Assembly (NCBI GenBank): GCA_041666545.1
Contig: JBAYGS010000001.1
Location: forward strand, 21,805 to 85,804
Reading direction: 5' to 3'
Length of the DNA: 64,000 bases
DNA from: Minisyncoccota bacterium
Lineage (GTDB): Bacteria; Patescibacteriota; Minisyncoccia; Phycocordibacterales; JBAYGS01
A program made the position numbers and the translations under genes. A model generated the notes under the pieces. That model made no database searches, had not been told where the DNA came from, and worked only from the letters and a program-made list of their open reading frames with translations. Position 1 is the stretch's first letter, and each line of letters starts with the position of its first letter. Shown piece after piece: positions 9,024 through 63,011 of this stretch.

Positions 9024-9902
9024 ATGCAGATTACAAGCGTCAGTGGCCGGACCTACCAGGTCGGCAAGCAGATTGGCCAAACCGAACATCACAGAATCTA
9101 CGAATGTACTCTTCCGGACGGTCAGCCGGCAATTCTCAAAATTGCTCTGGAGACCTCGGACAATTCTTCGCTCGACCACGAGGCCGTGATTATTAGAATC
9201 ATGACCGAAGAAGCCAAGCTTTTGGAAGCTGAATTTGCGGAGACTTCGGAAGCTAAAGAGCATCCGGAAATCCGACTGAATTACCACTTTTATTTCCCGG
9301 CCTTGATCGAAAGCTTTATTGCTGACGAGCAAGGTGGCCGGCGAATTAATGTGGTGGCTTTTCCGAATGTCGCGAAGAAATTGGTGGAGTTGGTGCCGAT
9401 TTTGCACCTGACTACCCGGGATCGGATCCGAATCGATCCGAGGACGAGCGCGTGGATACTCGGCAAACTTTTGAAGATGCTGGGGTTTACGCACAATCTT
9501 AACATCGAAATCGGCAATCTGTCGGGCGATAATATCTTGATCAATCGGGAGGGTCACTTTGTGGCAGTCTTCGATTGGACCGGGGCAAAATTCGCCGACG
9601 GAGCTCTTTCGGATGGCGTGAAAGCGAAAGAGATTTCGCAAGTGACTAGGGCGGTAGTCGTGGCCTTGGGTGGCGACCCGGAAACCGGCGAGCTACTCGA
9701 AGACGCACAGTTGCCTGATGAGAAATATCGGGAACTTCTCCAGAAATTGCTTAGCGAGGGTGAAGCCTCTGCCAAGCAAGCTCACGGAGATTTTTACCGG
9801 CTCGTCTATGGGCAGTGGCCGAGAGAGTATCATCCTTTCACGGCTTACCCATTGGATGAGTTCGGGGGTTCGGAAGAAACGGTGGAAGAGGAAGAAAAGT
9901 AA
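9024..9902 (+). CDS. protein-kinase-like fold protein (atypical kinase or pseudokinase)
   Basis: Gly-rich-loop-like YQVGKQIGQTEHHRIY plus AILKIA (VAIK-like Lys). A catalytic-loop-like GNLSGDNILINREG keeps Asp and Asn, and DWTGAK sits in place of DFG. The C-terminal tail is acidic. TTGACA-17-TATAAG promoter at 8958-8986 and GAAAGG SD. Confidence 0.6.
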   Translation: MQITSVSGRTYQVGKQIGQTEHHRIYECTLPDGQPAILKIALETSDNSSLDHEAVIIRIMTEEAKLLEAEFAETSEAKEHPEIRLNYHFYFPALIESFIADEQGGRRINVVAFPNVAKKLVELVPILHLTTRDRIRIDPRTSAWILGKLLKMLGFTHNLNIEIGNLSGDNILINREGHFVAVFDWTGAKFADGALSDGVKAKEISQVTRAVVVALGGDPETGELLEDAQLPDEKYRELLQKLLSEGEASAKQAHGDFYRLVYGQWPREYHPFTAYPLDEFGGSEETVEEEEK

Positions 9903-9965
9903 AACCAAAACCAATCTCAAGCAATCCAAAAACTGCTTGGGTCAAAAAAGAAAGGCAAGAAAGTT

Positions 9966-11120
9966 ATGGGTAAAGATAGAGGATCGACAGTTGTTTTTGA
10001 GCGGGCGGTAGCAACAATCCGATCAGCTGGTTCGGCAACCTCCAGAGGCGAACAGCGCCATCGGGAAGGCAGGGGCCTTCACAGACTGGTTGATCCGAAA
10101 GGGTTTGGCGCCGTCAGGCGCTCAATCAGCTGGCTGGAACCGAAAGGTAAGAAGTTTGTCTTGTTCCGCGGGACGGCGATGCTCGAGGAAACGCGTCTGG
10201 ATACTACCGGTTCAATGGGTAGCAATGTGGAAATCGCGATGAAGGTCCTGCCCAAGACGAACAAGCTTCTGGCCGAAGTGCCCGGCGCCGTTCTTGGTCG
10301 GTATGATACCCAGATGATCACTTCCATCTTCGCTGATGTCGATGATAGCTATGTGCTCTGTCGGTCGCAAGCCGAATTCGACGAGCGCATTGCCGAGCAG
10401 ATGACCTATATGGTGCCGGAGGGTCAAGGAGGCGACGATGACGAGGATCCGCAGTTTGGACTCTTCGGAGCCGCTTACCTCACTTGGTCGACGGCTGTGG
10501 AGTTGGGTCTCAGAACTTACGACTTCACGATTACCGACGCTTGTGGCCGCAATGCCAAGGAAAGGCGGCGGCCGGATCTCGACTATGACAAACTCCGAGA
10601 GGTGTTTGGTCAGGATGTCTTGGACAAAGTCCGGGAAAACGGCCACCCAATGAAGGAGGGCCAGTTGCCGAATACGCCCGAGATTGTGCGGGATCTTTTG
10701 AAGACTGCGCACGCCTTCGTGCTTCTGGTGGAGCCGGGGACATATGTTCGGGAGTATTGGCAGGAAATCTACGGTTCCGAACGGGTAGTGACCATTCCGC
10801 AGACCGAACTCTTGCCGGCTGTGAAAGCGGCGATTATCGGACTGACCGAAGGGACGCTTACTCTGCAATCGGTCGACCGGTTTCTGGTCGACAACGCGGA
10901 AATCGACACCTCGGATGCCAAGGCGATCCGACGGGCAGTTGCTCACATTCCGATCGGCGCCCAGGCGGCGCTCCCGAACTTCAAGCGGATTCCCATGAAG
11001 GGGGATCTCTTTGCGAAGAAGGGTGACCTCTGGCCGATTGGTTCGGATGTTCCAGACACGGCTGGGGCGGCTAAGCCCAAAGCTGATAAGCCTGGAAAAC
11101 CCGGCGGGATGTGGCTCTGA
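9966..11120 (+). CDS. hypothetical protein with a DxTGSMGS motif (possible MIDAS-like or ASKHA phosphate-1-like), Lys/Pro-rich C-terminal tail
   Basis: 384-aa ORF with AAAGAAAGG SD. Motif RLDTTGSMGSNVE near residue 80. Ends with a strong terminator at 11127-11160. Confidence 0.6.
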   Translation: MGKDRGSTVVFERAVATIRSAGSATSRGEQRHREGRGLHRLVDPKGFGAVRRSISWLEPKGKKFVLFRGTAMLEETRLDTTGSMGSNVEIAMKVLPKTNKLLAEVPGAVLGRYDTQMITSIFADVDDSYVLCRSQAEFDERIAEQMTYMVPEGQGGDDDEDPQFGLFGAAYLTWSTAVELGLRTYDFTITDACGRNAKERRRPDLDYDKLREVFGQDVLDKVRENGHPMKEGQLPNTPEIVRDLLKTAHAFVLLVEPGTYVREYWQEIYGSERVVTIPQTELLPAVKAAIIGLTEGTLTLQSVDRFLVDNAEIDTSDAKAIRRAVAHIPIGAQAALPNFKRIPMKGDLFAKKGDLWPIGSDVPDTAGAAKPKADKPGKPGGMWL

Positions 11121-11126
11121 AAAACT

Positions 11127-11160
11127 GGGGTGGCGACTGCTTAAGTCGCCACCCCTTTCT
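11127..11160 (+). terminator. intrinsic terminator
   Basis: ggggtggcgac-tgcttaa-gtcgccacccc followed by a T-rich tract. Confidence 0.7.
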
Positions 11161-11208
11161 AAAATCAATTTCCAACTTCCACTAAATCTCCAACAAGAAA
11201 GGTAAAGG

Positions 11209-12603
11209 ATGAAAAAGAAACAAGTCTTTACGGTGACAGATCTTGGTGGAGGCGACGGCGGTAAAGGCGGTGTTGTCCACAAGATTTGTGTTGCTAAGAA
11301 AGCGCATACCGTCATTAAAGCCGGTGGAGCGCAAGGTAGTCACGGAGTAAAAACTTCGGCTGGCCAGAGATTTAATTTCAGTCAGTTCGGTTGCGGGACT
11401 TTCGAGGGTGTTAAGACTTACCTGAGTAGTCTGATTGTAATCGAGCCACTGCGTCTACTCGCGGAAGCTGAAGAGCTCCAGTTTGAGTGGGGCATTGGGA
11501 ATGTCTGGAGTTATCTTACGGTAGATGATGAAGCACTTTGTGCGACCCCGTTTCATACCATCGCTTCTCGCTTACGCGAGTTGGCGAGGAAAGATAATCC
11601 CAAAGGCACGATTGGAGTCGGGATTGGCGAGGCTAAGCTTGATTCGGAAATTCACCCCGAACTCGCTATCTACGCCAAGGACCTTAATCAGTCGAGCCTA
11701 CGAGACAAACTTTGGGCCGTGAGGGAACAAAAACTTCTCGAGCTTGAAGAAATTATCGAAAATTCGGCTACTCTATGGACGGTTGATCAGGAAATGGCAC
11801 AGCGAGAAATCGATTTGATTCAGGACGAGGATTTCGTTGATTGGGTTGCCGATCAGTTTCGGCTGGTCGCGAGTCGGGTGAAGATTGTTGATCGAGATTT
11901 CTTGGTTAACGAGATTCTTTCGCCGGATGGTGTGGTTGTGGTCGAGAGTTCGCATGGGGTGCTGACAGATAAGTTTTACGGCTTTCACCCCAACACCTCG
12001 CGATTAAGAACCATTCCCCAAACGATTTGGAATTTTCTCCACGATCTCGGCTACGACGGTGAGGTTGTCAGGCTCGGGGTGACTCGGGCTTATCAAATTC
12101 GCCACGGCGCCGGTGCGATGGTGACGGAGGACCAAAGCTTTGTCGAGGAACTCCTGCCGGGCAGCAGTAAAGATGAAAATCGTTGGCAGGGAAAAGTCAG
12201 AGTTGGTCCGCTTGACCTCGTAGCCTTGCGCTATGCAATCGAAGTTTGCGGTGGTCCGCAAGTTTTCCACGGTCTGGCGATCAGTTGGTTTGACCAAATC
12301 AAATTGCTTGGTCGCTGGCCGATGTGTGACCGATATCTTGGGGCTGACGATCCGAATTTCTTCGGGCCGGACGGTCAGATCAAGGTTTCGCATCAGAGTG
12401 GTGACGAGCAATTGGTCCGCCAAGCCGAGTTGAGCAGACAGTTGTCTCTCTGTCGGCCGGAAATAACCAGTTTCGATCTCAAAGGTTTCGCCGATGAGAG
12501 GGAATTGGCCGGGTTATGCTCGGAGACACTTCTTAAGGCACTTGGTGTGCCGGTCAGAATGATCTCCTTCGGACCGACGGAAGCAGATAAAGTTCTTTTG
12601 TAG
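11209..12603 (+). CDS. adenylosuccinate synthetase (PurA)-family paralog, highly divergent
   Basis: Collinear matches to PurA along the full length. [12 protein letters not shown] vs [20 protein letters not shown] vs [19 protein letters not shown] vs [29 protein letters not shown] vs [34 protein letters not shown] vs YSTRVGAGPFPTE; C-terminus [13 protein letters not shown] vs ISTGPDRTETMIL. Several catalytic positions are substituted. Confidence 0.75.
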   Translation: [464 protein letters not shown]

Positions 12604-12618
12604 AGAAAAGTTTAGCTT

Positions 12619-12650
12619 GAGACCGGATTTGCCAAAATCCGGTCTCTTTT
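12619..12650 (+). terminator. intrinsic terminator
   Basis: gagaccggattt-gccaaa-atccggtctc followed by TTTT. Confidence 0.7.
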
Positions 12651-12779
12651 AATGCTCAAAAGACAAAATTAATTTGGGCCTTGACAATTATTGTCTATTA
12701 GTATATACCTAGAAAAGACGAAGAATCGCAAGGTTCTCGATCTTTCACAACAAACCAAAGAAAGAAAGGACAGTTAAGT

Positions 12780-14027
12780 ATGGAATCCAAAACAGAAGCT
12801 CCCGGTACTACGACCCCCGCGGCGGAGGCGAAGCCCGATTACTCGGCACTTTGGAATGAGCGGATCGGTCCGTTCGCCAATGCCGTTGGCAAGACAGTTG
12901 AGGAAGTTACGAATGCCCTGATGGGCGTGGTGGGGACGCCGAGCGAAGACGCTCTGGCTGCCCTCGGCAACAAGGATGACGCGCCGGATTCGGATATTCA
13001 AGCAGCCCTGTCGGCCCTGAAAATCCCCACGGCCATCTTCCGGCGTCACATTGCCAAGTTGCGTGGCGCCCCCCAAGTGGTGGCTTCGACGGCCAGTGCG
13101 GCTGGTCCGGCGATGCAGGCCCTGTCGGTTTTGCCTCAGGTGCCCGACGATAAATCGTTTATCGAGATGCTCAAGGTCGGCGGCGAACTCAAGATTGGTG
13201 TGGTCGAGGTTCTCTCGGCTGTGAAGGCCGGTTTTGCTCGGCGTACTGGACTCTTCGAACTTCCCGAGGCTTTGCTGGCCAAAATGGAGGAGTTCTCTGA
13301 AAATCAGTCGGAACCGTGTGGTGCCGATTTCTTCCGGCTCCAGAAGCTCATTGCCACCAAGTCGGCCGGTGATGTGTTGACGGCAATCGGTATCCCCGGA
13401 GCGTATGCGAACCAGACTCGTAAGCGGGCATTCTTTGCAAAGCTTGACGCTCATCTCTGGAAGGCCTTGCGCGGATTCAATAACCAGCTCATCGCCTGGC
13501 AGCAAAGTTATATGGCGACACTCAGTAATCCTGCCTTGTTGGTCGCGGCCATGAGCGGTGCAGTCGGCGGTGCTGGTATGGCGGCCCAGGGACTGATGGC
13601 TTTGCCTGACACGTCAGCTCTACGGGCAGGGGCGGAAGCGGTGATTGATGAAATCAACAAGGTCTTCGCTGGTCCCGGTATTCCGGTGGCGCGTGCTCTG
13701 GCGGCGGATGCGGATCGAATCCTGAAGATTCTGGAAGATCCGGCCCTGCCTGTTCAGCTCGGGGCGGCTACCAAGGAACAAATGATCAGGGACCTGCATA
13801 TTACGGTCGGCGCAGATTTGGTTCGGGCCGAGCAGAGCATCACTCGCTTTGCTTTGGCGACCATGTCTCTTAAGGACGTCCAAGCTGACATTGAACTCAC
13901 TTATCTGGGCGCGATGATTCAGCTTGGCGCGACCATTCCCTGGGACAAGCTCGAGACCGTGCCGGTCTCGGTTCCCGGGCGCGGGCGGTCCACGGCCGGT
14001 ATCGGTCGCACCGAAGAAGAGGATTAA
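12780..14027 (+). CDS. hypothetical Ala-rich protein
   Basis: 415-aa ORF with AAAGAAAGAAAGG SD and putative TTGACA promoter at 12671. About 17 percent Ala. No recognisable domain. Confidence 0.6.
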   Translation: MESKTEAPGTTTPAAEAKPDYSALWNERIGPFANAVGKTVEEVTNALMGVVGTPSEDALAALGNKDDAPDSDIQAALSALKIPTAIFRRHIAKLRGAPQVVASTASAAGPAMQALSVLPQVPDDKSFIEMLKVGGELKIGVVEVLSAVKAGFARRTGLFELPEALLAKMEEFSENQSEPCGADFFRLQKLIATKSAGDVLTAIGIPGAYANQTRKRAFFAKLDAHLWKALRGFNNQLIAWQQSYMATLSNPALLVAAMSGAVGGAGMAAQGLMALPDTSALRAGAEAVIDEINKVFAGPGIPVARALAADADRILKILEDPALPVQLGAATKEQMIRDLHITVGADLVRAEQSITRFALATMSLKDVQADIELTYLGAMIQLGATIPWDKLETVPVSVPGRGRSTAGIGRTEEED

Positions 14028-14097
14028 GTCCTCGTTTGTTGAATAAGAAGTTCTTGCAGTTGGGCGGCTCTCTACGAGAGCCGCCCTTTAAATTTGT

Positions 14098-16035
14098 CTA
14101 AATTTTCGGCAGGAAAACCTTTTTCAAAAACAGTTTGGTGGCGAGACGGCGGTAGCCCGAGTCCCAGAAGGTGCTGTCCGAATCGATGTCCCGAGAATTT
14201 TTAGTTTGGATTCCGCCTTGCTCCGGATAAAAGCGAGAATAGCCCTTGTGCATTAATCGATATTGTAATGAGTCGCGCTCGAGCTCTCTTAGCCAAGGTT
14301 CCTTGGCCCCATCATCAGCAGTCAGATAATTTGTTAGCAGTTTTTCATAAAGATCTTGCATTTCCTTTCGGTCGCCGCCCCAAACTCCACCAAAAAGAAC
14401 ATTCACGAAGGAACTGTCGCCCAAGAAATTGTCCGGGTTTTTGAAATCCCTAATTTGCACAGTTTCTCCTTTAGCTTCAAGCCAGAATTCCAATACGCCC
14501 CCTTTGATCTTGTGTGATTTTAAAATTGACTCGAGAGTTTTTTGAATTTCTCGTCTTTTCTCAAAATGAGTTTCTGGTTTAATAAAGACGGCTACGTCGA
14601 TATCGGCAAAATCAGTGCCGTAACCCTTGACCTTAGAGCCGTACATAATCGAGATTGGCAGGATAGACCTCGAAAGCTCTTCGCTAGTCTCAATCGCTTT
14701 GGCAATTTCCAAAAATTCTTTGGCAGTTTCTTGATCCGCAATTTTAAATTCTGCGCCGATTCTCGGTGTCCTAAGTCCGAGAGCCTCGAGCTTTTGACTG
14801 GAGATTACCCCGGAGTCTGCCAAGTGATATAAACTGGCCTCGATCAGCTCTTTGGTTTTTTTCTCGCGATGATCAAGTAGGTCGATAATTATCGGCTCAA
14901 GCTCCGCGTAGATTTTTGGGGCAACATCCGGGCTATTCGAAATAGACTTACCAAGGAATTTACCAAGTCCTCTTATGATGGCTAGTTTGAAAGGGGTGTT
15001 TCGGGTTGTCTTCGCGACCTGATCCAAATCACCAACCGAAAGGGTTTGCTTGATTAAAGCTGAATCAATTTGAGCGGCGGCAGTCTCTATAAGCTTTCTT
15101 TCGTCACGATCCTTTTGCCAAGCGATCCTGGCCTCCGGAATTTTTCCAGCCCGATCCGCGTGTCTTTTGTTAAGTGCCTCTAAATTAGCCTCGATTTGTT
15201 TGCCAAAACTATTCAACCAGTTGGCATCTCGCCCTGTTTTCACAACTTCCTCGGTCGGTAACTGTTCGCTCTGCTCGATCATTTTCGCCAGGTTAGCAAA
15301 GTCGGGGTTGTTTGATTTGGCAAGTCGGTCAAAGGTCTTCGCTGGCAGGAATCCGAGATCGGCTAAAACCGGAATGGCATCCATCAGGCTGTCGCTTAAG
15401 GTTTCATCTTCACTATTTTCCAAAAGATCGACAACCGTATCGGCCGTCAGTAAATTTTTCTCAACTAATTTGGGTACAAAATGGGCAGCCTTGATGACAC
15501 GGGGCAAAGGCTTGGATCGTAGCTCAACTTCCGGGATGTCGCCGTCGACAAAGTTGGCTCGAGTATCGGAGATTGTGAGCAGAGTTCGCCACTTTCTTAG
15601 GTAGGACTGGTTAAATTGTTTGGCGGCTCGGTCGAGCTCGGCGGACTCGGTTTTCAAATCGCTGGCTGGCAAAATTTCAAAAGGGAGATAAAGCAAAATT
15701 CGCTCGGCACCATTTTCAGTTTCGAGAAAATTTGAGAGCTCGTCATAAACTCTAGTCAAGACCTCCGGTTTGATCAGTTTTGATCTGAGGGCTTCGGCAA
15801 TTTCGACATCGGCATCAGGAATTGCTTCGAAAACTTTTTCCAGGTCAGCGGTGAGTTTGAGGCGGACCTCAGCTTCGTCTCTTAGTTTCTCGTTTTGCTT
15901 AACATCGGCCGGCCAAAGCGACTCCGGACTGTCGAGGCGGAGGAGTGATTCGCCGGGTGGTGGCGTCAGAGTGATTTTGGAGGCTTCATAACTCTCTTGG
16001 CTCTGGCCCGGGGATGATTTTTCGTGGCTAAACAT
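14098..16035 (-). CDS. large protein with C-terminal minimal nucleotidyltransferase (pol-beta superfamily) domain
   Basis: 645-aa ORF. C-terminal third carries the NTase fold signature YGSKVKGYGTDFADIDVAVFI (hG[GS]x9-13Dh[DE]h). N-terminal about 470 aa predicted helical. TTGCAA-17-TAAAAT promoter on the minus strand around 16050-16080. Confidence 0.65.
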   Translation of the reverse strand: MFSHEKSSPGQSQESYEASKITLTPPPGESLLRLDSPESLWPADVKQNEKLRDEAEVRLKLTADLEKVFEAIPDADVEIAEALRSKLIKPEVLTRVYDELSNFLETENGAERILLYLPFEILPASDLKTESAELDRAAKQFNQSYLRKWRTLLTISDTRANFVDGDIPEVELRSKPLPRVIKAAHFVPKLVEKNLLTADTVVDLLENSEDETLSDSLMDAIPVLADLGFLPAKTFDRLAKSNNPDFANLAKMIEQSEQLPTEEVVKTGRDANWLNSFGKQIEANLEALNKRHADRAGKIPEARIAWQKDRDERKLIETAAAQIDSALIKQTLSVGDLDQVAKTTRNTPFKLAIIRGLGKFLGKSISNSPDVAPKIYAELEPIIIDLLDHREKKTKELIEASLYHLADSGVISSQKLEALGLRTPRIGAEFKIADQETAKEFLEIAKAIETSEELSRSILPISIMYGSKVKGYGTDFADIDVAVFIKPETHFEKRREIQKTLESILKSHKIKGGVLEFWLEAKGETVQIRDFKNPDNFLGDSSFVNVLFGGVWGGDRKEMQDLYEKLLTNYLTADDGAKEPWLRELERDSLQYRLMHKGYSRFYPEQGGIQTKNSRDIDSDSTFWDSGYRRLATKLFLKKVFLPKI

Positions 16036-16251
16036 ATGAAGGAATTTTAAGCTTTAAGGCGCTAGATTGCAAACGAATCGGGTGCTTGCCGGGTTTACGA
16101 ATTCAACGAAACGAGTCGGGTTCTTGAACTTATGAAAATTTGCAAAGTCGATGTTGACATCCGTGGTAAATTAGTGTAATACGACTACAGGACGGGCTTG
16201 TTGGCCCATCTGTTCTACACAACAAACAAAGAGAAAGAAAGGAAAGTCATT

Positions 16252-48185: not shown

Positions 48186-48360
48186 AAACAAAAAATGGAA
48201 CACTAGCGTGTACAGAATAGCGTGGGCCACAATAATTCATTTTCCGTCGAAAGTGAATTTTCCAGCCCCGGACTCAGCTGTTTTTCTTGCTAGAAAAACA
48301 TGCTTCCGTCTTCACATATAGCAGAAAAGACTGAAGCAGTTCAGTCTTTTCTGTGTCATG

Positions 48361-48432
48361 TGACCCTACGGGGAGTCGAACCCCGATTACAGCCTTGAGA
48401 AGGCCGTGTCCTAACCATTAGACGATAGGGCC
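48361..48432 (-). tRNA. tRNA-Glu (anticodon CTC)
   Basis: Minus-strand sequence GGCCCTATCGTCTAATGGTTAGGACACGGCCTTCTCAAGGCTGTAATCGGGGTTCGACTCCCCGTAGGGTCA folds as a cloverleaf. D-stem GTCT/GGAC, anticodon loop TTCTCAA, T-arm CGGGG-TTCGACT-CCCCG. CCA not encoded. Confidence 0.85.
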
Positions 48433-61576: not shown

Positions 61577-61646
61577 TTGTACTCCTATTTAAATAAGTGA
61601 CACCAGACAAATCGGAACCTTGAACCAATGATGAATCACCCATTTG

Positions 61647-61717
61647 TGGACTCACCGGGAATCGGACCCGGGCCTCGTCAATGCGAATGACGCGTAATAC
61701 CACTTTACTATGAGCCC
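61647..61717 (-). tRNA. tRNA-Ala (anticodon CGC), slightly atypical T-loop
   Basis: Minus-strand GGGCTCATAGTAAAGTGGTATTACGCGTCATTCGCATTGACGAGGCCCGGGTCCGATTCCCGGTGAGTCCA. Carries the G3:U70 Ala identity pair and anticodon loop TTCGCAT. The T-loop reads TCCGATT, not the usual TTCGA. Confidence 0.7.
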
Positions 61718-61790
61718 TACAAGTATCCTCTTGTAGGATGAAATCGTAGCATAGGTTTAGGAAAAATTTAAATTGCGATATACTTTAGCC

Positions 61791-62054
61791 ATGAACTCGC
61801 AAGAAAAATATGTGCCACCGGAAAAGGGGAAGGGTCTTTTTGATTTGATGAGAAAGGTTGTCGATGGAAAAGTTGAGGCGGAGGAGGTTATTGATGAGGC
61901 AGGAACTGTTGCCTCGAAAATTATCACTAAATCTGAGAGCGCCAAAACGCAACCTAAAAATTTTCAAACCGCCGCCGGCGCGATGGACGAGTGGCAGAAA
62001 GCGCAAGAAGAAGCGGAAGAGAGAAGTTTTGAGCAGAGAAAGAGGGCGGCTTAG
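61791..62054 (+). CDS. possible small charged protein
   Basis: 88-aa Lys/Glu-rich ORF (MNSQEKYVPPEKGKG...); weak signals. Confidence 0.35.
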   Translation: MNSQEKYVPPEKGKGLFDLMRKVVDGKVEAEEVIDEAGTVASKIITKSESAKTQPKNFQTAAGAMDEWQKAQEEAEERSFEQRKRAA

Positions 62055-62132
62055 TTGAGTTGGAATATAAAAACACTCCGGCCAATCGGGCACCGGAGTG
62101 CGCTTGTGGTCGGAGTGCGAAATGTTGCAAGG

Positions 62133-62408
62133 CTACTTTGGCTTATGGGGCAAGGTAGCATGGCAGGTGTTGAGGAACGTGGCAATATTCATAGCCGCTT
62201 CGGTCAGTGTCGCCTCATCGCTAGCGTGCTTTGAGTATGCTTCATTAATCCGCTTGTCGCAAAGATTCTGTTGCAGTTCGTTTAAGGACGCGTCATCATT
62301 AACGCCGGCAAAAATCAAACTGACGAAACTGTGCCGCCTGCCAAAATCCGCATGCCGGTCGATCTCTGAAACCTCGTGCAGGTATGTCTTAGCTGTCTTG
62401 CGTGCCAT
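62133..62408 (-). CDS. hypothetical small protein
   Basis: 91-aa ORF with AAAAGAAAGG SD immediately upstream of ATG 62408. Confidence 0.5.
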   Translation of the reverse strand: MARKTAKTYLHEVSEIDRHADFGRRHSFVSLIFAGVNDDASLNELQQNLCDKRINEAYSKHASDEATLTEAAMNIATFLNTCHATLPHKPK

Positions 62409-62712
62409 AGGGAGCCTTTCTTTTAGAAGTTTTTAGGAACATCTGGTTCTACAAACATACTAGCATATATCAATAGAAAAGTCAATATATGCTGGCGAGG
62501 TATAGTTCCGGTCTAAGCGAAAATCAAAAATCCTGCCTCAGAGCAGGTTTTCTCTGTTTGGTGTACGACGAGTCACTAAGTATTTTGTTGCAAAGGTCAA
62601 CAAAATACATAAGTGTTCGCGACCCCAGCTCACCATCGCATCTGCTGATGCGATATGGTTCCGCCTTCCACAAAAGCACAAAATCCCGCGAAGGCGGGAT
62701 TTTGTGCTTTTG

Positions 62713-62785
62713 TGGACCGTACAGGAGTCGAACCTGCCACCCCCTCATTGCAAATGAGGTGCTCTACCAGATGAGCTAACGGCCC
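62713..62785 (-). tRNA. tRNA-Ala (anticodon TGC)
   Basis: Minus-strand GGGCCGTTAGCTCATCTGGTAGAGCACCTCATTTGCAATGAGGGGGTGGCAGGTTCGACTCCTGTACGGTCCA. Carries G3:U70, anticodon loop TTTGCAA and a canonical T-arm. Confidence 0.85.
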
Positions 62786-62866
62786 GTATTATGATTACCA
62801 AGAAAGACTAACATATCTTTGCTGGTCTTCAAAATCTATTTAAATGTGATAGTATATTGGCCAGTT

Positions 62867-62939
62867 GGGCCATTAGCTCATTTGGTAGAGCGCATCCATG
62901 GCATGGATGAGGCGGCCGGTTCGATCCCGGCATGGTCCA
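62867..62939 (+). tRNA. tRNA-Ala (anticodon GGC)
   Basis: GGGCCATTAGCTCATTTGGTAGAGCGCATCCATGGCATGGATGAGGCGGCCGGTTCGATCCCGGCATGGTCCA. Carries G3:U70 and anticodon loop ATGGCAT. Divergent from the TGC gene 80 bp away. Confidence 0.85.
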
Positions 62940-63011
62940 CAAAGAGAAACCTGTGATTTTAAAAGCCGCCTGTCAAAGGCGGCTGTGAAGGTAGCTGGTC
63001 GAAATTCAAGC

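Follow-up and report, generated by a model that had tools for sequence, protein, structure and literature searches.

Divergent PurA homologs with rebuilt substrate pockets in a conserved vWA-pseudokinase gene module of Patescibacteria

Does a protein that spans the entire PurA fold, and that is labeled as an adenylosuccinate synthetase in the databases, necessarily make adenylosuccinate? The question is raised by a gene in a 64,000-nucleotide stretch of DNA from a Minisyncoccota bacterium (Patescibacteriota; contig JBAYGS010000001.1, positions 21,805 to 85,804), henceforth the window, in which coordinates are counted from the first letter and features lie on the plus strand unless stated otherwise. 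The gene, here termed gene C as the third member of a five-gene module (A to E), occupies 11209-12603 from ATG to stop and encodes 464 amino acids; judging by profile matches and alignments, it combines a PurA-type catalytic core that appears to be kept with substrate pockets that appear to be rebuilt. The Pfam family PF00709 (Adenylsucc_synt) covers the protein at full length (residues 15-458 against profile positions 8-412 of 416; 112.2 bits, E 3e-32, passing the gathering cutoff of 27), which bears out the end-to-end alignment with PurA claimed in the original prediction, a first reading of this locus made from its letters without database searches. The protein fails both PurA equivalog models, with 76 bits against a cutoff of 395.55 for NCBIfam TIGR00184 and 73.7 bits against a cutoff of 402 for NF002223; its nearest solved structure is the Thermus thermophilus PurA (6JRQ), recovered at an E-value of only 5e-12, and its identity to the Escherichia coli PurA is about 25%. 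A metagenome-assembled genome of Candidatus Paceibacterota (Patescibacteria/Candidate Phyla Radiation) encodes a protein identical to it, annotated there as 'adenylosuccinate synthetase'. Gene C is a full-length, very divergent PurA homolog.

Functional insights regarding this divergence come from residue conservation across 181 non-redundant relatives aligned to the E. coli PurA through a family hidden Markov model (HMM), with the register cross-checked by a PDB profile search and with a second set of 139 broader representatives; the numbering is that of the E. coli literature, and percentages refer to the 181 relatives. The P-loop, G12-D13-E14-G15-K16-G17-K18 in E. coli, reads GGGDGGKGG in gene C (11245-11271), where Asp16 corresponds to the catalytic base Asp13 (D in 95% and E in 3% of relatives) and Lys19 to Lys16 (K in 98%); Gly12, Gly15 and Gly17 are also conserved, while Glu14 and Lys18 are both replaced by glycine. 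The segment equivalent to the E. coli GGHNAGH is GGAQGSH (11323-11343), in which His45 corresponds to the catalytic acid His41, a histidine in 100% of relatives. The original prediction had this histidine lost on the basis of a GSHG string, a reading that proves to be a one-residue misalignment: His45 falls on His41 in profile alignments to both the E. coli and T. thermophilus PurAs, and the GGAQAAH of a sister clade (see below) matches the PurA motif without a gap, which backs the same register. A MAFFT pairwise register that places the histidine opposite a glycine is overruled by these alignments and by the gap-free sister-clade motif. Additionally, Glu221, Arg272, Arg306, Asp311 and Asp333 are conserved at 99-100%. 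Asp333, which is kept in 100% of relatives, is Asp362 of the SWFD motif in gene C (12283-12294), the counterpart of the guanine-specificity motif of the NKxD type that reads TKLD in E. coli, with Lys331 replaced by tryptophan, again in 100%. The guanine O6 contact (S414-T-G-P in E. coli) is retained as SFGP (12565-12576), Ser453 being conserved in at least 90% and Gly455 invariant. The likeness to PurA accordingly spans the full-length fold, the P-loop aspartate and lysine, His41, the Mg/GTP elements, Asp333 and the S-x-G-P motif, as well as a hydroxyl at the Thr239 position, the glycine-rich loops (G127/G130/G132/G134) and R272-x-G-x-G.

The residues that contact the substrates of PurA present a different picture. 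In the region binding the 5'-phosphate of inosine monophosphate (IMP), the E. coli GTTGRGIGP becomes GTIGVGIGE (11605-11631); the phosphate ligand Thr129 is replaced by valine or isoleucine in 99% of relatives, Arg131 is lost in gene C and variable across the family, Pro135 becomes glutamate, and Arg143, which is contributed in trans (Arg143'), becomes glutamate or aspartate in 83%. Thr128 is kept in 92%. Beside the catalytic histidine, Asn38 is replaced by glutamine in 98% (Gln42 in gene C) and Gly40 by serine. The ligand of the IMP base, Gln224 of the E. coli EGAQG, becomes His249 within ESSHG (11944-11958), along with a serine for Ala223; this change to histidine is found in 98% of the gene C clade, while the sister clade keeps the glutamine. 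Among the IMP ligands Asn38, Thr129, Thr239, Arg143' and Gln224, only the Thr239 position still carries a hydroxyl (S/T in 100%). Further, Val273 of the E. coli YSTRVGAGP is His299 in the YQIRHGAGA of gene C (12091-12117), a substitution that marks the whole family, being present in 99% of the gene C clade and in 135 of the 139 broader representatives. Reconstruction is also seen in the 13-residue L-aspartate-binding loop (12178-12216; GATTGRRRRTGWLD in E. coli), where Gly298 becomes asparagine, Ala299 arginine (100%), Thr300 an aromatic residue (W/Y/F, W in gene C) and Thr301 glutamine, while Arg303 and Arg305 are no longer arginines, reading lysine and valine. No alignment register preserves the T-T-G-R-x-R signature in this loop.

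As read from these alignments, the catalytic core and the GTP site appear to be kept, and the pockets for the IMP phosphate and for aspartate to be rebuilt with new residues that are themselves conserved, which is the pattern expected of an active enzyme with new substrates rather than of a decaying pseudo-enzyme. The motif strings quoted in the original prediction are all present (at 11245-11271, 11323-11343, 11605-11631 and 12178-12216); its assertion that nearly every catalytic or substrate-binding motif is altered holds for the substrate-binding residues and fails for Asp13, Lys16, His41 and Asp333. The alignment to the PurA ligands that it had proposed as a check likewise yields a split answer, with the IMP and aspartate ligands changed and the elements of the GTP site conserved.

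Gene C belongs to a large family. A word-indexed search recovered 884 relatives, of which the top 120 are all approximately 460 amino acids long and 53-63% identical to gene C, and derive from Paceibacteria, Falkowbacteria, Sungbacteria, Ryanbacteria and Minisyncoccia. NCBI and JGI label the whole family (P0001-P0120) as 'adenylosuccinate synthetase/synthase'. When each GTDB species was represented by a single genome, a scan found relatives in 143 genomes, which include Saccharimonadia (Nanosyncoccus) and Uhr-, Davies-, Moran-, Wildermuth- and Nomurabacteria; identity to gene C drops with taxonomic distance, from about 60% in Paceibacteria to about 40% in Saccharimonadia. An exhaustive profile search against 1.84 billion representatives returned 2,177 clusters (50% identity) at E < 1e-30. 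As canonical PurAs score approximately 75 bits against the family profile, they are expected between 1e-10 and 1e-30 and thus outside this set. Literature searches, within the library covered, found no published description of the PurA-like family or of its module.

The genomic context of the family was surveyed in 80 species-representative Patescibacteria loci fetched around relatives of gene C. Gene B adjoins gene C in all 80, gene A lies upstream of the B-C pair in 74, gene D is present in 70, and gene E, which is convergent with D, in 71; the usual order is A>B>C>D> <E; contig ends account for many of the missing genes. The first six loci compared carry the same five genes within wholly different flanks, each gene being 30-61% identical to its homologs in the other genomes. 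No PurB homolog was detected by tblastn with the E. coli PurB in the 64-kb window and 89 related loci (1.57 Mb), where an E. coli PurA query matches only the PurA-like genes, at identities of at most 30%. Thus, of the earlier description of the gene as solitary and without a purB neighbor, the latter half stands for the window and the flanks, while the former gives way to a five-gene module that has gene C at its center in 80 of 80 loci. The placement of the gene inside an island defined by a major vault protein (MVP) gene is likewise not upheld: the 848-amino-acid homolog of the eukaryotic MVP at 16198-18744 (Pfam MVP_shoulder, E 9.8e-20; Vault_3, E 4.8e-12) is a neighbor of the module in this species alone, being present in 0 of the 80 related loci, so that a link between the two was rejected as a coincidence of this species. 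The other neighbors in the window (ORFs of 488, 532 and 160 amino acids) are similarly absent from all 80.

Of the four partners of gene C, gene A (9024-9902; 292 amino acids) has a protein-kinase fold: a profile built from 40 orthologs matches the catalytic-loop region of CK2-alpha in the PDB (E 1e-6), and Pfam Pkinase is detected in 8 of the 40 members. Its β3 lysine is a lysine in 36 and a glutamine in 31 of 73 sequences, the position of the HRD aspartate is unconserved, and the DFG aspartate is retained in 57 of 73; because neither the β3 lysine nor the HRD aspartate is conserved, gene A is predicted to encode a pseudokinase. Gene B (9966-11120; 384 amino acids) encodes a vWA/integrin beta-I-like protein with a motif of the metal ion-dependent adhesion site (MIDAS) type, D79-x-T81-x-S83 ... 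D191, that is invariant. No match by sequence was found for it in Pfam or the PDB, and its Rossmann-like vWA fold was recognized only from a structure predicted with AlphaFold2. Both ends of the protein show unusual constraint: it starts with Met-Gly in 103 of 120 independent gene calls, and its C-terminal tail of about 20 residues, which is disordered (predicted local distance difference test score < 50), has a conserved penultimate tryptophan (ending in WL in 64, WK in 19 and WA in 7 of 120). In the sister clade, B starts with MGxxxWSxxxY in 30 of 51 sequences and ends in RL in 24 of 51. Conservation at the very ends of the protein hints at sites for docking or modification.

Gene D (12780-14027; 415 amino acids, or 365 if the later start called by NCBI applies) encodes an all-alpha protein, whose N-terminal domain is SAM/helix-hairpin-helix-like and whose C-terminal helical domain yielded no convincing match in the PDB. 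Gene E (14098-16035, minus strand; 645 amino acids) joins a conserved N-terminal region of about 450 amino acids, for which no Pfam match was found, to a C-terminal nucleotidyltransferase domain of the MNT/Pol-beta type. The motif of the latter is intact (G466-S467 ... D478-x-D480) and its GS..DxD pattern invariant; Pfam Polbeta is detected in 28 of 31 members, and the matches in the PDB are HI0073, whose entry calls it a hypothetical protein, and 5yep, an antidote of the Mnt family. In a JGI contig of the window species (L002, 10730-12650), the E ortholog is called as two genes of 270 and 381 amino acids, owing either to a frameshift in the population sampled or to a fault in the assembly.

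Natural gene fusions tie the PurA-like protein directly to this module. P0378 (1129 amino acids; L090, 3421-6810) and P0428 (1102 amino acids) each unite a PurA-like protein with a full-length E, the fused E domains being recovered with HMM E-values of 2.8e-145 and 3.9e-136 and blastp E-values of 3e-79 and 7e-78; A and B homologs lie directly upstream of the fusion in the P0378 locus. In a third protein, P0388 (700 amino acids), the PurA-like region is fused to a C-terminal domain of 208 amino acids for which no Pfam match was found. These three divergent versions have a P-loop of the form G-x-G-E-E-T-K in place of G-D-G-G-K, with glutamate for Asp13.

The sister clade, which accounts for 99 of the 139 broader representatives, shares with the gene C clade the N38->Q and V273->H substitutions, WQ for the two aspartate-binding threonines and Asp333, and carries an invariant cysteine at the Thr129 position. 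More than 551 of its loci were found in a metagenome scan, 80 of which were fetched (L098-L177); the order A>B>C> is dominant wherever upstream sequence exists, D is present in 2 of the 80 and E in none. Given that this clade carries the A-B-C unit without E and almost always without D, the ancestral unit is the triad of pseudokinase, vWA and PurA-like proteins, to which D and E were added in Patescibacteria. The median GC content of the sister clade is 0.61 (up to 0.75) as against 0.46 for the gene C clade, implying that much of the former lies outside Patescibacteria. Its A protein has the catalytic loop V-H-G-A-x-L-P-x-H-x-L-I, with alanine for the HRD aspartate and histidine for the catalytic asparagine, and keeps the β3 lysine and the αC glutamate, thereby defining a distinct and conserved atypical kinase-like family.

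Some Patescibacteria genomes (L047, L093) contain both clades and hence two paralogous copies, which argues against the role of a single housekeeping adenylosuccinate synthetase. In the former, a second, stand-alone pair of vWA and PurA-like genes of the sister-clade type lies beside the full module (5229-7787, minus strand), its PurA-like member having the motifs GDEGKG, SCG and NRWQG and keeping Gln224. In the latter, a sister-clade PurA-like protein (P0500) lies within an apparent cluster for small-molecule or nucleotide biosynthesis (3693-17101) that encodes a member of the PRK/uridine-kinase family, a genuine Pkinase, a vWA protein with an inserted domain, a pyruvate-kinase-barrel-like protein, a pyridoxal-phosphate enzyme (PALP), several methyltransferases, a peptidase S66, an Orn/DAP/Arg decarboxylase and two dCTP-deaminase-like proteins. 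A context of this type did not recur in the census of 80 loci, and no Pfam family was found in more than 2 of 101 neighbors in the sister clade.

Taken with the residue pattern, these observations make it rather probable that gene C encodes a neofunctionalized, GTP-dependent ligase or phosphotransferase of the PurA type, acting in complex with the vWA protein, and not an enzyme converting IMP to adenylosuccinate. This non-canonical role is favored because of the low equivalog score, the replacement of the aspartate ligands and of two of the four IMP-phosphate ligands by other, invariant residues, the fixed synteny with non-purine genes, the fusions to E and the presence of paralogs, and it agrees with the suggestion in the original prediction that a PurA fold had been recruited for other chemistry. 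The reaction of PurA passes through 6-phosphoryl-IMP. By comparison with it, the product of gene C would bind GTP through the retained Asp333, beside which the former lysine is now a tryptophan, and would phosphorylate the oxo group of an acceptor that is probably purine-like, since Gln224 (or the histidine in its place) and the hydroxyl at Thr239 remain; the phosphate would then be displaced by a nucleophile that is not free L-aspartate. That Thr129 and Arg143', the strongest two of the phosphate contacts, are gone (the latter in favor of glutamate or aspartate) suggests that the 5' end of the acceptor is not a free phosphate monoester. Likewise, the R-W-Q now found in place of the threonine/arginine carboxylate clamp suggests that the nucleophile is an amine that is larger or uncharged. 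The protein would act as a subunit of an A-B-C(-D-E) complex rather than as a free metabolic enzyme.

Several points weigh against this reading. Kept catalytic residues are no proof of activity, and the geometry of the active site is read from an alignment in which the register of the aspartate loop is uncertain by one residue, such that Arg303 and Arg305 correspond to lysine and valine with a gap or to glycine and valine without one. The physical complex is deduced from synteny and fusion, and the absence of canonical purA and of purB applies to flanks of about 20 kb. Additionally, the five genes could belong to more than one transcript, as terminator-like hairpins, identified by consensus match only, follow both C and D: one with a 12-bp stem and a T-rich tail lies 16 nt past the stop codon of C (12619-12646), and another with an 11-bp stem, including nine GC pairs, lies between the convergent D and E (14062-14086).

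The principal rival to an enzymatic function is that gene C encodes a GTP-binding switch or scaffold, a dimerizing GTPase of the SIMIBI type that regulates the vWA/pseudokinase complex through GTP hydrolysis without any ligation. PurA belongs to a P-loop class that also holds switches of the MinD/ParA type, and a role of this kind would fit partners that are mostly non-enzymatic interaction modules (the vWA protein, the pseudokinase and the helical protein), the lack of recurring small-molecule biosynthetic genes nearby, and the GTP site being the best-conserved part of the protein. However, Asp13 and His41, which in PurA serve phosphoryl transfer to the substrate and not nucleotide binding, are 95-100% conserved, and the invariance of residues in the rebuilt pockets (H249, H299, R325, W326, Q327) implies a specific bound ligand. 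A switch is therefore a minority prospect, to be taken seriously while still unlikely; of the two options offered in the original prediction, a different GTP-dependent ligation or a nucleotide-binding regulator, the former is preferred because the residues needed only for phosphoryl transfer are retained. An involvement in biological conflict, with the PurA-like enzyme depleting or modifying a nucleotide upon phage infection, appears less likely again. In its favor, conflict systems often contain vWA, kinase-like and nucleotidyltransferase domains (PMC7159879), the module has different flanks in different genomes, and the sister-clade triad occurs in variable contexts. Yet there is a single copy per locus, with a vertical-looking conservation across the phylum and a fixed architecture, as opposed to the shuffling of effectors typical of conflict systems, and neither a MoxR domain nor any effector or toxin domain was found. 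A search of PADLOC-DB 2.0 returned nothing for B, C and D and only weak, partial, sub-threshold matches for A and E (E-values 1e-3 to 6e-3), hence no significant match for any of the five proteins.

That the annotation could simply be correct also deserves consideration, with gene C and its relatives being genuine, highly divergent adenylosuccinate synthetases through which Patescibacteria turn salvaged IMP into adenosine monophosphate. The NCBI and JGI annotations, the full-length fold with its catalytic aspartate, histidine and lysine and guanine-specificity aspartate, and the housekeeping-like conservation across the phylum, in which identity falls with taxonomic distance, would all be in keeping with such a function. 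Against this, none of T300, T301, R303 and R305 is kept and an acidic residue stands at the R143' position, the score is about five-fold under the equivalog cutoff, and there is obligatory synteny with the vWA, pseudokinase and nucleotidyltransferase genes besides the fusions to the nucleotidyltransferase protein. Nor was purB found in the flanks, and the pathway is missing from the greater part of the phylum, de novo nucleotide synthesis being absent from 93% of Patescibacteria genomes (bioRxiv 10.64898/2026.06.21.733656). Further, the high-GC bacteria in which the sister clade abounds presumably already own a canonical PurA, and two paralogs can be present in one genome. In light of this, a genuine adenylosuccinate synthetase is very unlikely, and it is almost certain that a large family annotated under this name does not make adenylosuccinate.

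Within the preferred reading of a GTP-dependent ligase, a specific and highly speculative version, coherent in chemical terms but regarded as a long shot, is that gene C encodes a protein-modifying enzyme. Here, the GTP-activated 6-oxo group of a purine would react with the α-amino group of the N-terminal glycine of B to give a conjugate of protein and purine nucleotide, the nucleotide possibly having been attached beforehand to a protein or RNA by E. Such a reaction would explain the loss of both the contacts to a free 5'-phosphate and the threonine and arginine residues that bind the aspartate carboxylate. The circumstantial support for it consists of the Met-Gly start of B, also seen in the sister clade, its flexible and conserved termini, the adjacency of B and C in 80 of 80 loci and the fusions of C to E.

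A comparison with known systems helps to place the module. Relative to PurA (EC 6.3.4.4; E. coli 1ADE), gene C differs not only in its altered IMP ligands, lost aspartate ligands and the tryptophan at Lys331, but also in never lying beside purine genes and always lying by vWA and pseudokinase genes. The phage 2-aminoadenylosuccinate synthetases PurZ and PurZ0 offer a precedent in that they, too, re-use the PurA fold for another acceptor and keep the activation driven by a nucleoside triphosphate (NTP). However, Asp13 is present in 99% of canonical PurAs and is a serine in 100% of phage PurZ (PMC12884076), which still uses aspartate, whereas in the gene C family Asp13 is retained and the ligands of aspartate are gone; moreover, PurZ is phage-borne with genes of the DatZ/MazZ/DpoZ type, whereas this family is chromosomal. 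The PurZ analogy drawn in the original prediction thus does not extend to membership of that group. A scan of 2.9 million viral contigs in IMG/VR gave three hits, all with the cellular A-B-C(-D-E) module. These three contigs (L095, L096 and L097, one of them 408 kb) carry the module in complete form and are probably mis-binned fragments of Patescibacteria genomes. A PurZ-like phage function was rejected, given the retained Asp13 and the cellular module on every one of these supposedly viral contigs.

Among systems centered on vWA domains, the TerY-P triad reportedly combines the vWA protein TerY with a Ser/Thr kinase and a PP2C phosphatase, and is like the present module in being a compact, conserved set of three genes that centers on a vWA protein with a MIDAS and on a protein with a kinase fold. 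It differs in its third member, which in the module is a PurA-like GTP enzyme, no PP2C domain having been found in Pfam scans of the module proteins, and in its kinase, as the kinase-fold member here is without the catalytic aspartate and often without the lysine. The MoxR-vWA ternary systems of the VMAP, iSTAND and FtsH types (PMC7159879) similarly employ a vWA protein as the central adaptor of an NTP-dependent multi-gene system; however, no MoxR AAA+ ATPase and no third component of the VMAP, iSTAND or FtsH type was found in the module or its flanks, and variable effector domains are lacking. The survey of vWA systems just cited mentions neither PurA nor adenylosuccinate. Gene E recalls the minimal nucleotidyltransferases of the MNT/Pol-beta group, such as the MntA antitoxin and HI0073, in its intact GS...DxD motif, and departs from them in its length, in its conserved 450-residue N-terminal region and in being paired with or fused to a PurA-like protein; no HEPN partner was found in Pfam scans of the five module proteins. 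In sum, what is new here are the substrate pockets, the set of partners and the phyletic pattern, the fold and the general chemistry being already known.

A few other features of the window lie outside these subjects. Just upstream of the module is an exporter operon of the tripartite type (2171-7410), which encodes an ECF-type sigma-70 factor (2171-2722), an HlyD-like adaptor (3699-5465), an ABC ATPase (5480-6184) and a MacB/FtsX permease (6187-7410). Gene A is directly preceded by a minus-strand ORF (8398-8880), just past the 3' end of which lies a GC-rich inverted repeat of 13 bp, perfect and flanked on either side by runs of T (8359-8387), resembling a bidirectional terminator. Further downstream are a tRNA-Glu(CUC) gene (48360-48432) and three tRNA-Ala genes (CGC, UGC and GGC) within 1.3 kb (61646-62940), two on the minus and one on the plus strand.

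The implications extend beyond a single annotation. With approximately 2,000 clusters at 50% identity, the family is comparable in size to the canonical PurA clusters in the same search, and it may yield false positives in pathway calls that rely on adenylosuccinate synthetase. This enzyme serves as a purine-pathway marker in the above-mentioned preprint (bioRxiv 10.64898/2026.06.21.733656), and reconstructions that use it in this way would be misled at a time when the nucleotide economy of Patescibacteria is actively debated. Within the Candidate Phyla Radiation, the five-gene module ranks with the better conserved of the uncharacterized gene sets, and its occurrence in cultivable Saccharimonadia makes it genetically testable. 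After PurZ, the family would represent another natural re-use of the GTP-activation chemistry of PurA, one in which the aspartate site has been replaced and which is tied to a complex of vWA and pseudokinase proteins, and it may point to a new nucleotide or protein-modification chemistry. Were the conjugation to B to prove true, a previously unknown post-translational modification would lie at the heart of a complex found throughout the Patescibacteria.

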